From a virus, in IMG/VR virus record IMGVR_UViG_3300013233_000167, positions 1-64,000 of that record: DNA of 64,000 bases; one strand, written 5' to 3'. How positions within the stretch are numbered: the first letter of the stretch is position 1; each line of letters starts with the position of its first letter. The notes under the pieces are model-generated. The model made no database searches, had not been told where the DNA came from, and was given only the letters and a program-made list of their open reading frames with translations. This document shows positions 42,016-54,957 of the stretch, piece by piece. A program made the translations under genes and the position numbers.

Positions 42016-42418
42016 CGGCGTCCGTGAGGGCGAGCAGTTCATCCGCCGTGTACTGCGCGTACTGCGCCAACCAGCCGTTCGTGAACACCGTCTCGATGTC
42101 GTCGTCGGCAGGCAGCCTCTCGATCAACGAGGGGATACGTTCGGGGTGTTCCGAGTGTCGGAACACGAGCGCGAGCCAATCACACACAGGCGCGCGCGAA
42201 CTCGAAGTCAGTCGGTCCGCGAACCCTTCCAACACGCCCACGTCGAGACCTTGGTACAGAAAGACGCTGCTCGTGATCGTCGTACGAAGCGCCATGACCT
42301 CCGCGAACTTCCCGCACGTCATGTTGTCGCGCAGCAACAGGTACACGAACGCAACGAGTCGTCGGCGGTCTGCGACGGTGCCAGACGCTTGCGCGAGCGC
42401 AGCCCTGCGTTCCGGCAT
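42002..42418 (-). CDS. hypothetical protein
   Basis: LVAFVYLLLRD...FTNGWLAQYA. Confidence 0.65.
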   Translation of the reverse strand: MPERRAALAQASGTVADRRRLVAFVYLLLRDNMTCGKFAEVMALRTTITSSVFLYQGLDVGVLEGFADRLTSSSRAPVCDWLALVFRHSEHPERIPSLIERLPADDDIETVFTNGWLAQYAQYTADELLALTDADACT

Positions 42419-52632: not shown

Positions 52633-54957
52633 CTACTTATCTTCGGTGCGAAGAAAATAATCACGGAGCGCCTGCTTTCGTGCGTCCTCAGTACGCAGGC
52701 GCGCGTACGCGAGGAGCCGGTTGAACCGGGCGAAGTCACGGTCGCGCTTCTCCGCGATCCGATCCACCGGCATCTCTGCGGCCAGATCAGCGCGCCACTT
52801 GATGATTTTTACCGAGAGCCCCGCGACTGCCTTCCCGATGTTCAGTACGGCCTTACGATTGCCCTGGAGCGACTCAAGCGCGCGCGTCACGTAGTAGGTG
52901 GTGAGTCCCGACTGCTCCTTGAGTGCCGTCTTGTTGATCCACACTTCGAGCACGTTGGTCTTCTCGGTCGCATACGCGGGCTCGACGCAGCTCTCCGAGA
53001 ACGTGCGCCAGACGTGCACTATCTGCGGCTTCGCTTTACCGGGCTCCTCGATGGCTTGGCGGAGCGCCTCACGATCGACGGTGATCGGCACGCCTTCCTT
53101 GATGGAGCGGCGTTCGAGCAGACCCGCCGAGTGTAGTCGGTTCAGGATGACGCCCACTTGATCGGGGCTCAGTGCCGAGACCTTCTTGGCCGTGATCTCC
53201 TGCGAGAGTGCGTTGCGGTTCGTACGCATCGACTGACCGGGTTGCAGCATGGCGTGCAAGTGCTCCCACACGAGTTGGTAATGCTGCCACGGAGGGTTCT
53301 CGTTCTCGATCAGACGCATCTGCCACTCAGCCGAGCCTTGGTCGCCAAGCAGAATCGTCTCCGACACCTGACCGTCACGACCCGCGCGACCGATCTGCTG
53401 CGTGTAGTCCTCCAACGACCCAGGGAAGCCAAACAGCACGACGGTACGGATGTCTGGCACGTCGATGCCCATGCCGAACGCCGTGGTGGCGCACACGATG
53501 CGCGCACGCCCATTCTCGTCCGCGAAGTCGTCCTGAACTTCAATGCGCCTCTTGTCCGGCAGGCCCGCGTGGTACGCGACCGCGATGCCGTCGCCGTGGA
53601 TGTCCTCGCAGATCTCCGCCAGTTTGTGCGATCCGTTGCGCGACGAGCAGTAGACGAGGTGACGACCACCGCGCACGTCCATGTCGCGCGCTAGGCGGCG
53701 GAAAGTGCTCCACGAGTTGTTGTAGCCGCCGTCAATACCGCCGTCCTCGATCAAGTAGCGGAGGTTGTGACGAATCGGATCATCGACGAGGATCGTGACC
53801 TCTTCGCGGTCGAGCCCTAGCGACTGCACGATGTCTTCGACAACGATAGGAGTCGCGGTAGCCGTCATGGCGAGCACCTGGGGCCGCTCCTTTCCGTCGC
53901 TCAGCGAACGGATCAGTCGGTGGATGTGCATGTAGTCGGGACGGAACTGGTGCCCCCACTGTGAGCAGTTCGCTACGAGGATGCCTTCCGCGAAGTAGTT
54001 GTGATCGCCTTCGACCGTGAGCGAATACACGCGCGGACCGTCTTCGCCACCTCCGCCGCGTCTTCTAGGATCGCTTGCGATGAGAGTCTCAACACCAACC
54101 ACCCGAGACGCTTCAACTTGCGATCGCGCTTCCGGTCGAGTCGCGCCAGTGTCTCGGCTCGTTGAGCATCCGCGTAGCAAGTCTTGTCGCAGTAGCGCGC
54201 CTTCTCCCGAGCCCTTCTTGACGAGAGCTTCTTTCGGCAGTGCTCGCAACGCTTCATCACCGACCTCAACGTCTTTCGCTTCAACATAGCCTCGATGCTC
54301 CAACCAGATCTTATGGTCGCCCGTCACGTCCAAGACTCTCCCGTCAGCGAACCGCAAGCGAAAGAGTCCTCGACCTCCGACGCGAACAACTGCGTCGTTC
54401 AAAACACAACGTTTGACTTGCCTGCCGTCGCGGTCGCAAGCCACTACGAGGTCACCAACGTGCAACGTCTCGATCGCAACCTCGCCGTTCGGTGTACGCA
54501 CGCGAGTACCTGCCGGATGGCAACAATGCGCTTCATCGACTGCCACGATCGAAACGTCGGCTCGTTGGATGGTCGTAAGAAAGCTCCGCGCACCGATGCG
54601 CTCTGGTGAGATGTAAAGCAGCTTCGTCGAGCCGTTCACGAATCCCTCGACCGCATCCCACTGCTCGTCGTCGTCCATGATGGAGTTGATGCACGCGGCC
54701 GGGATGCCGCGCGACACCGCGTCGTCCACCTGATCCTTCATAAGCGCGATCAGCGGCGATACCACGATCGTCCCGCCTTCCTCCAGGAGTGCGGGAAGTT
54801 GGTACAGCAGAGACTTGCCGGTGCCGGTCGGCAGTACAGCGAGCACGTCGTCTCCTTCGCCGATACACGTCATCGCAGCGCGTTGGCTCTTGCGGAAGGA
54901 TTGGTAGCCCCACCGCGCGCGCAGCACTTCTCGCGCTTCGTCGAGTGTAAACATCAC
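52633..54957 (-). CDS. recQ: RecQ helicase with intein
   Basis: WGYQSFR, LPTGTGKSLLYQLPA, SPLIALMKDQV, DEAHC/CSQWGHQFRP, TATA, YHAGL, AFGMGID, QQIGRAGRDG. Confidence 0.95.
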   Translation of the reverse strand: MMFTLDEAREVLRARWGYQSFRKSQRAAMTCIGEGDDVLAVLPTGTGKSLLYQLPALLEEGGTIVVSPLIALMKDQVDDAVSRGIPAACINSIMDDDEQWDAVEGFVNGSTKLLYISPERIGARSFLTTIQRADVSIVAVDEAHCCHPAGTRVRTPNGEVAIETLHVGDLVVACDRDGRQVKRCVLNDAVVRVGGRGLFRLRFADGRVLDVTGDHKIWLEHRGYVEAKDVEVGDEALRALPKEALVKKGSGEGALLRQDLLRGCSTSRDTGATRPEARSQVEASRVVGVETLIASDPRRRGGGGEDGPRVYSLTVEGDHNYFAEGILVANCSQWGHQFRPDYMHIHRLIRSLSDGKERPQVLAMTATATPIVVEDIVQSLGLDREEVTILVDDPIRHNLRYLIEDGGIDGGYNNSWSTFRRLARDMDVRGGRHLVYCSSRNGSHKLAEICEDIHGDGIAVAYHAGLPDKRRIEVQDDFADENGRARIVCATTAFGMGIDVPDIRTVVLFGFPGSLEDYTQQIGRAGRDGQVSETILLGDQGSAEWQMRLIENENPPWQHYQLVWEHLHAMLQPGQSMRTNRNALSQEITAKKVSALSPDQVGVILNRLHSAGLLERRSIKEGVPITVDREALRQAIEEPGKAKPQIVHVWRTFSESCVEPAYATEKTNVLEVWINKTALKEQSGLTTYYVTRALESLQGNRKAVLNIGKAVAGLSVKIIKWRADLAAEMPVDRIAEKRDRDFARFNRLLAYARLRTEDARKQALRDYFLRTEDK
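53968..54522 (-). mobile_element. mini-intein (185 aa) just after the RecQ DEAH motif
   Basis: DEAHC|CHPAGTRV...VTGDHKI...VYSLTVEGDHNYFAEGILVAN|CSQWGH. Confidence 0.93.
53973..54257 (-). CDS. out-of-frame ORF nested in the RecQ intein: Zn finger plus truncated Vsr/DUF559-like endonuclease
   Basis: MKRCEHC...YCDKTC then DRKRDRKLKRLGWLVLRL...I; GAGG 6 nt before ATG. Confidence 0.7.
   Translation of the reverse strand: MKRCEHCRKKLSSRRAREKARYCDKTCYADAQRAETLARLDRKRDRKLKRLGWLVLRLSSQAILEDAAEVAKTVRACIRSRSKAITTTSRKASS

Follow-up and report, generated by a model that had tools for sequence, protein, structure and literature searches.

The 64,000-nucleotide stretch of viral DNA analyzed here (the window; positions 1 to 64,000 of IMG/VR record IMGVR_UViG_3300013233_000167) is part of a 74.5 kb contig with a guanine-plus-cytosine (GC) content of 61%. 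A look-up of sequencing runs containing it, whether of DNA or of RNA, listed none. On its minus strand, a RecQ-like helicase gene (52633..54957) encodes a protein with an intein, and the +1 frame of the intein coding sequence holds a second open reading frame (ORF; 53973..54287). Comparison with related loci indicates that this element very probably belongs, in decayed form, to a class of inteins that is widespread in phage helicases and in which the homing endonuclease is a separate, nested gene. In this class, the nested gene would encode one to three FCS-type zinc ribbons followed by a DUF559/Vsr-like PD-(D/E)xK nuclease, lying on the same strand as the helicase gene, in the +1 frame and wholly within the intein. 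The evidence consists of the homology of the window ORF to such nucleases, the two open frames of the intact relatives and the pattern of selection on these frames, and it largely supports a preliminary description of the same DNA.

The RecQ intein and its nested reading frame

The helicase gene is an uninterrupted ORF for a precursor of 774 amino acids (aa), intein included, which matches the Pfam DEAD and Helicase_C profiles; on either side of the intein it shares 36-40% identity with Salmonella RecQ. Alignment places the insertion in helicase motif II (DEAHC[intein]CSQWGH in the window, DEAHC-ISQWGH in Salmonella RecQ); the inserted sequence thus interrupts a conserved host motif in frame and has no counterpart in the Salmonella protein, as expected of an intein. 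The intein spans 185 aa (53968..54522, minus strand; Cys1 to Asn185, CHPAG...ILVAN) and is recognized by the Hint_2, Intein_splicing, TIGR01443 (31.6 bits, cut-off 15.6; expectation value (E) 1.4e-7) and TIGR01445 profiles, the last at 21.5 bits and hence slightly under its cut-off of 24.5. The splicing nucleophiles are present (Cys1 at 54520-54522, Cys+1 at 53965-53967), block B reads TGDH (residues 67-70), and the C-terminus reads ...HNYFAEGILVAN, with Cys as the next residue.

An AlphaFold model built on an alignment of related inteins (predicted template modeling score 0.75) resolves both splicing lobes with confidence. The N-terminal lobe (residues 1-96; 54235..54522), with blocks A and B and the TGDH motif, is modeled with predicted local distance difference test (pLDDT) values of 79-96 and is conserved with P0005, the closest RecQ relative, and with related inteins. 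The C-terminal lobe (residues 138-185; 53968..54111), which comprises the strand SRVVGVETLIA and blocks F/G (VYSLTVEGDHNYFAEGILVAN), reaches 83-90 except for one loop, matches TIGR01443 and aligns with RVESIEILE...VYDLEIEDNHNYFANNILVSN of related inteins. Between them lies a linker (residues 97-137; 54112..54234) with pLDDT below 50 at residues 101-134. Foldseek matches the model to the solved mini-inteins Mtu RecA, DnaB, gp41-1 and NrdJ-1 (E 5e-9 to 1e-6). On this model the Hint fold is predicted to be intact, and the element appears to be a well-formed mini-intein that is probably functional in splicing. In the intein center, codon-position GC follows a normal coding pattern in the +1 frame and lacks it in the intein frame, so that the linker reads as an off-frame shadow of the nested gene. 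The profiles, the disordered center of the model and the codon-position GC all bear out the preliminary description, which had seen normal splicing blocks around a center resembling off-frame sequence.

The nested ORF runs for 104 aa from an ATG at 54287, or for 94 aa from an ATG at 54257, to a TAG stop (53973-53975) that falls within the intein Val-Ala codons preceding the terminal Asn. The 94-aa version, with a GAGG ribosome-binding site and an ATG both supplied by intein codons, had been proposed before and was read correctly. ATG 54257 stands as a valid candidate start, but it is not the sole one: ATG 54287, in the intein GYV codons (GGC TAT GTT), matches the start of many relatives. The GAGG (54264..54267, minus strand), Shine-Dalgarno (SD)-like and 6 nt upstream of ATG 54257, is weak evidence for that start because 14% of all ATG triplets in the window have an SD-like 4-mer before them. 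Of 308 open +1-frame runs in proxy genes, 26 extend over at least 104 codons, and the length of the ORF alone is not significant in a contig of 61% GC. What takes the nested ORF beyond chance is its homology.

The Pfam DUF559 profile matches the ORF with 21.1 bits (curated cut-off 20.6), over the C-terminal 43 profile positions only (64-106 of 109), and MTES_1575 matches with E 1.9e-4, both at residues 33-86; full-length relatives obtain 46-60 bits with DUF559. A phmmer search of 1.8 billion proteins returned only five matches, all of at least 252 aa, the best being P0013 (E 4.3e-13), a protein of 266 aa with three CxxC...CxxC ribbons and a full DUF559 domain (E 2e-16). The nested ORF aligns with P0013 in two blocks with nothing between them: the first FCS-type zinc ribbon (CEHC...x15...CDKTC; 54177..54248, minus strand), with 64% identity to P0013 residues 17-52, and a terminal block of 64 residues, with 44% identity to residues 198-261 of that protein, in which a C-terminal DUF559-like segment survives (D..RD..L...GW.VLR plus a helix; 54030..54158, minus strand). 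These alignments indicate true homology to zinc-ribbon plus DUF559/Vsr-like endonucleases, and the DUF559/Vsr signature previously read in the ORF thus withstands a profile search. The zinc-ribbon part also has a weak match elsewhere in the window (42143-42301, plus strand; E 0.0026, 34% identity), in an alternative-frame ORF beside a DNA polymerase gene, which is probably due to chance.

In the family alignment, the second ribbon, a GGNG motif, a conserved Asp and the E.DG..H core have no counterpart in the window ORF, in which the last ~55 residues of the full-length relatives follow immediately on the first zinc ribbon. The catalytic core (D ... E.DG..H ... D) is present in all 17 of the full-length sequences aligned. 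The approximate deletion junction (54135..54140, minus strand) falls between ...ETLARL and DRKRDRKL..., where some 158 residues of P0013, comprising the second and third ribbons, the GGNG motif and the E.DG..H core, are unmatched. The window ORF therefore looks like a fragment of a DUF559/Vsr-like endonuclease, not a functional member of the family.

The longer intein of P0005 points the same way. Its exteins are 70% identical to those of the window protein, and its intein, at the same site, has 321 aa, 136 more than that of the window, with a center made of the same kind of meaningless sequence as the window linker. Its +1 frame was judged by threading all codon-compatible readings of the intein center against P0013, a procedure that gives upper bounds only. 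The best-case score was 800, against 444-508 for ten shuffles and 360-376 for extein controls, and no stops were forced. Over the parts shared with the window, the intein frames are 60% identical, and the nested frames could be up to 82% identical, as a protein-level bound, with all four cysteines retainable. The +1 frame of P0005 appears, on these grounds, compatible with a full P0013-like protein. Most probably, then, the window element arose from a full-length form when an in-frame deletion of about 136-160 codons took out the active site, and the ORF that is left would be a dead relic. Both the alignments with full-length relatives and the P0005 intein agree with the earlier suggestion of an internally deleted remnant lacking the E.DG..H core.

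An AT-rich lineage represented by L037 (3848-4096) and L038 (same coordinates) carries a nuclease-deleted copy that is independent of that in the window and for which L018 (3965-4765) provides the full-length reference. In both, the first zinc ribbon is joined directly to ..LNSLGWKVLRFWN.., giving 83 aa from the ATG versus 267 aa in L018; 184 codons have been lost, ribbon 1 and ...LGWKVLRFWN... have been kept, and the host frame remains open (789 aa versus 973 aa). That the same two pieces were kept here and in the window fits a protection of the parts adjoining, or co-encoded with, the splicing lobes, and would be in keeping with only such segments escaping deletion.

Intact relatives and selection on the two frames

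A search of viral contigs with P0013 yielded 33 loci of 26-55% GC. In 32 of these, a nuclease ORF of 260-355 aa lies wholly within one open frame of 600-1369 aa, from which it is offset by one base (+1). The host frames encode SNF2, ResIII or DEAD helicases with an intein inserted between the DE and the C of the motif, and where the nuclease stops they read into intein blocks F/G (VYDLEIEDNHNYFANNILVSN followed by C). The sole locus with a broken host frame, L035 (3500-4400), is interrupted near the C-terminal intein lobe, has blocks F/G that look degenerate and may be a decayed or split copy. Complete nucleases, with no scattered stops, are thus what the alternative frame of related inteins holds, as anticipated in the preliminary description. 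The window intein or P0005, used as queries against the viral contigs, returned block-G matches only or nothing, and a metagenome scan found only distant RecQ genes. L040, whose sequence gave no clean translation, was left out.

The same layout recurs in 17 of 80 bacterial or archaeal loci, most of the other 63 being ordinary free-standing DUF559 genes. The hosts of the 17 include Azospirillum canadense and Desmonostoc, as well as metagenome-assembled genomes of Akkermansia, Bacteroides, Planctomycetota and Woesearchaeota. It is also found in the finished genomes of three cultured phages, Pseudomonas phage MR14 (gp44, L045), Vibrio phage 159E43-1b (L046) and Vibrio phage 1.194.O (gp69, L047), where complete nested nuclease frames of 227-263 aa lie in frame +1 of coding sequences annotated only as helicase or 'coil containing protein'. 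Overall, the loci with this layout span 26-67% GC. Three SNF2 helicase genes (L011:1837-5802, L007:1645-5658 and L020:1678-5784) carry two inteins each, the upstream one with an in-frame LAGLIDADG domain and the downstream one with a +1-frame DUF559 gene.

The anatomy of the overlap is conserved. The nuclease ATG of many loci lies in the intein GYV codons (GGA TAT GTT), directly past block B, which is the position of ATG 54287 in the window. Toward the nuclease C-terminus, in L011 and its relatives, one stretch of bases specifies in two frames both GWKVLRFWN, the nuclease motif with the highest conservation, and RVESIEILE, the first strand of the C-terminal intein lobe. The corresponding dual-coded stretch of the window lies at about 54084-54104 (GWLVLRL / VVGVETL), GW.VLR at 54087-54104 sharing its bases with the intein strand VVGVET. 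The DUF559 signature of the relic would survive, at least in part, because the same bases encode this strand, and selection on the intein alone could have kept its GW.VLR part. The nuclease stops at block F in AT-rich genes, and GC-rich ones (the window, P0013, P0015, P0016 and L023) continue to block G. A '..TTTS..' tail of the GC-rich ORFs was considered as a family motif and rejected; it is a shadow of block G (HNYF), and the AT-rich relatives stop earlier.

By profile comparison, the nuclease domain of the full-length relatives matches PDB 3HRL (E 5e-14) and I-Bth0305I (3R3P; E 2.6e-3), and the fold of P0013 resembles both with template modeling scores of 0.69-0.76, at Foldseek E values of only 0.01-0.03. 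The ribbons of the family match FCS/MYM zinc fingers and YacG (PDB).

Chance accounts poorly for the coexistence of the two frames. Given the nuclease protein and local codon usage, the probability of a stop-free host frame is 1e-7 to 1e-25 in 11 loci; conversely, that of an open nuclease frame is 1e-2 to 6e-8. The ratio of non-synonymous to synonymous substitution rates (dN/dS; Nei-Gojobori method), computed for 12 related loci that lie outside the lineage of the window, is 0.21 in the exteins and 0.25 in the N-terminal intein lobe. In the overlap, it amounts to 0.27 in the nuclease frame and 1.2 in the host (intein) frame, with the short stretch dual-coded with the C-terminal intein half (IntC) being confounded by constraint on both frames. 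Variability in the overlap peaks at host codon position 1, the third position of the nuclease codons. In the relatives, therefore, purifying selection acts on the nuclease frame of the overlap and not on the intein frame. This result, together with the two open frames, sustains the earlier proposal that the nuclease belongs to a separate alternative-frame gene and not to an intein domain, separate translation being what the comparative evidence suggests. The term 'overprinted', which had been applied to the nuclease gene, has the direction wrong: selection maintains the nuclease reading, of which the intein linker is a shadow.

Origin of the window copy and alternative explanations

In intact members of the class, ribosomes reading the helicase frame would produce a precursor from which the intein, made up of two splicing lobes and a long unconstrained linker, splices itself out. 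Other ribosomes would start internally, at the ATG directly past block B, and synthesize the nuclease, which would cut intein-free helicase alleles and thereby bring about homing. In the phage of the window, an in-frame deletion of about 136-160 codons appears to have eliminated the later zinc ribbons and the catalytic core, leaving an open frame of 94-104 aa without a nuclease active site inside a 185-aa mini-intein, on whose splicing the RecQ-like helicase presumably still depends. Under this reading, the window copy represents a late and ordinary stage in the homing cycle.

Several points weigh against such a reading. The penultimate residue of the intein is Ala where His is usual; Ala is found in P0005 too, and Ser in many relatives, both residues being frequent in the clade. 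The full-length ancestor is deduced from protein-level compatibility of P0005 and P0013, and translation of either frame, splicing and nuclease activity are, in all members, deduced from sequence. Finally, the probability that the nested frame of the window is open by chance is not negligible, exact synonymous resampling giving values of 0.03 and 0.01. A relic frame that is still open at such odds makes a residual function conceivable, and the shortened ORF might be expressed with a function of its own, its product being, for instance, a small DNA-binding protein with a zinc ribbon that serves to regulate or protect the target site. None of the four ribbon cysteines has been lost, and the same may hold for P0005, the GAGG lies 6 nt from ATG 54257, and the same parts have been kept in the independent deletion of L037/L038. 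Against this, +1 runs of this length and SD-like 4-mers are both common in a contig of this composition, the retained C-terminal part can be explained by constraint on the intein frame, the retained ribbon adjoins the end of the N-terminal lobe, and the 1.8 billion proteins searched contain no short-form family. We consider a functional short ORF improbable.

A former in-frame intein domain, displaced by compensating frameshifts or assembly errors, is a more distant prospect and in our view very unlikely. A single indel suffices to give a one-base shift on the same strand, and the contig is known from one assembly only. The +1 layout with an open host frame, however, is found in dozens of divergent loci of 26-67% GC, finished genomes of cultured phages included, and the nuclease starts and stops at conserved places within the splicing blocks. 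No in-frame version was found: long DUF559 ORFs in L097, L099 and L106, considered as candidate in-frame intein-nuclease fusions, turned out to be ordinary DUF559 fusions without inteins.

Programmed +1 ribosomal frameshifting, which would yield a fusion of N-extein, N-terminal intein half (IntN) and nuclease with no independent initiation, has an equally slight chance of being correct. The nuclease frame is indeed the +1 frame of the host and begins within translated sequence, and a promoter/terminator scan identified no promoter-like site inside the window helicase gene. But the relatives examined have an in-frame ATG directly past block B, in codons that vary, many with AGGA/GGAG-like bases upstream; no conserved slippery or shift-prone site was seen, although no dedicated search was made; and the related free-standing Vsr-like genes of fractured genes have starts of their own (PMC2677866). 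Lastly, the notion that the frame is open by chance and its motif similarity spurious, for which the unremarkable length and SD motif of the ORF at this GC content would speak, is refuted by the match to P0013 in two separate segments, the family alignment, a Pfam score above the curated cut-off and a position that exactly matches the full gene in relatives, and can be set aside as practically without support. The decayed nested gene thus stands as the preferred explanation.

Significance and comparison with known systems

The interest of the window copy lies mainly in its class and in what its remains reveal about the dispensable parts of a dual-coded element. The window, L037 and L038 show what remains after decay in the homing cycle, and the parts dual-coded with the splicing lobes would be those that cannot be deleted. 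Current annotation enters members of the class simply as helicases, or labels them 'mini' or 'decaying' inteins, and overlooks the nuclease genes; the finished genomes of cultured Pseudomonas and Vibrio phages are no exception. The class shows that the invasion of an intein by a free-standing endonuclease gene need not split it. If splicing occurs as proposed, these inteins tolerate 230-280 residues of unconstrained linker. The nested nucleases would moreover constitute a pool of putative site-specific enzymes targeting helicase motif II.

Full-text literature searches retrieved no report of a same-strand Vsr-like/DUF559 gene nested in an uninterrupted intein. It may be suggested, with some reserve, that same-strand +1-frame zinc-ribbon/Vsr-like genes in uninterrupted helicase inteins form a large class not described in the literature searched and a direct evolutionary link between contiguous inteins and fractured genes, with the co-encoding of GW.VLRF and the first IntC strand fixing the docking point of the gene in the intein. 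If so, the fractured form would require only a single stop codon in the linker, and a mini-intein would arise where the nuclease core is lost, as in the window. The novelty initially assumed for the arrangement has to be narrowed accordingly: out-of-frame endonucleases in inteins have been known since 1998, and it is the same-strand Vsr-like version that was not encountered in the literature searched.

Out-of-frame or antisense endonucleases in inteins go back to Gorbalenya 1998, as cited in preprints of 2025 and 2026. In an actinophage survey, Gosselin, Arsenault & Gogarten (bioRxiv 10.1101/2025.01.02.630785) describe antisense LAGLIDADG, antisense VSR-like and same-strand endonuclease-VII-like (frame 3) genes, and state that VSR-like homing endonucleases have otherwise been reported only with split inteins. 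Phillips, DeSimone & Gogarten (bioRxiv 10.64898/2026.09.14.751524) report a same-strand LAGLIDADG gene as a +2 ORF in a dnaX intein, with the same selection pattern as the helicase class. The non-canonical inteins of both preprints share with the present class an endonuclease ORF inside the intein in another frame, an open host frame, an unstructured linker, selection on the endonuclease frame and a propensity to be mis-annotated as mini-inteins or decaying inteins. The window likewise has its endonuclease ORF within the intein boundaries, in another frame, with the host frame open, and on that account would belong among the non-canonical inteins. What sets the present class apart is that its helicase inteins contain a zinc-ribbon plus DUF559/Vsr-like gene, on the same strand and in the +1 frame.

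A parallel in nuclease type is provided by the fractured genes of Dassa et al. (2009; PMC2677866), where the two halves of a split intein flank a free-standing Vsr-like gene whose 3' end overlaps IntC by 6-69 bp. Fractured genes share with our loci the type of nuclease, the strand, the association with phage DNA-metabolism genes and the overlap of the nuclease 3' end with C-terminal intein coding sequence, and the window intein model resembles the gp41-1 and NrdJ-1 inteins of those loci. In fractured genes, however, the host frame ends after IntN, a non-coding gap of 27-51 bases follows, IntC has its own start and splicing occurs in trans, whereas the 774-aa host frame of the window is uninterrupted, and those of 32 of the 33 viral relatives run unbroken through the whole nuclease gene.

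With regard to the nuclease itself, I-Bth0305I (EDxHD family, PDB 3R3P; Taylor et al. 2011, PMC3239194) and NGO0050 (DUF559, PDB 3HRL) resemble the catalytic domain of the relatives in profile and fold; the gene of I-Bth0305I, however, lies in a group I intron instead of inside an intein, and the window copy is without the catalytic core. The ShiLan insertion element (PMC11855218), according to the abstract of that report, is likewise stop-free in its host frame and hides an out-of-frame endonuclease in a phage methylase gene, but the nuclease is of the HNH family, the host gene is another one and the insert could not be identified as an intein. Finally, the window intein is predicted to share the Hint fold, the mini-intein size and a short unstructured linker with mini-inteins that have lost their endonuclease, such as the Mtu RecA and Ssp DnaB splicing domains, from which it differs in that its linker is the out-of-frame rest of a nested gene instead of the stump of an in-frame domain.

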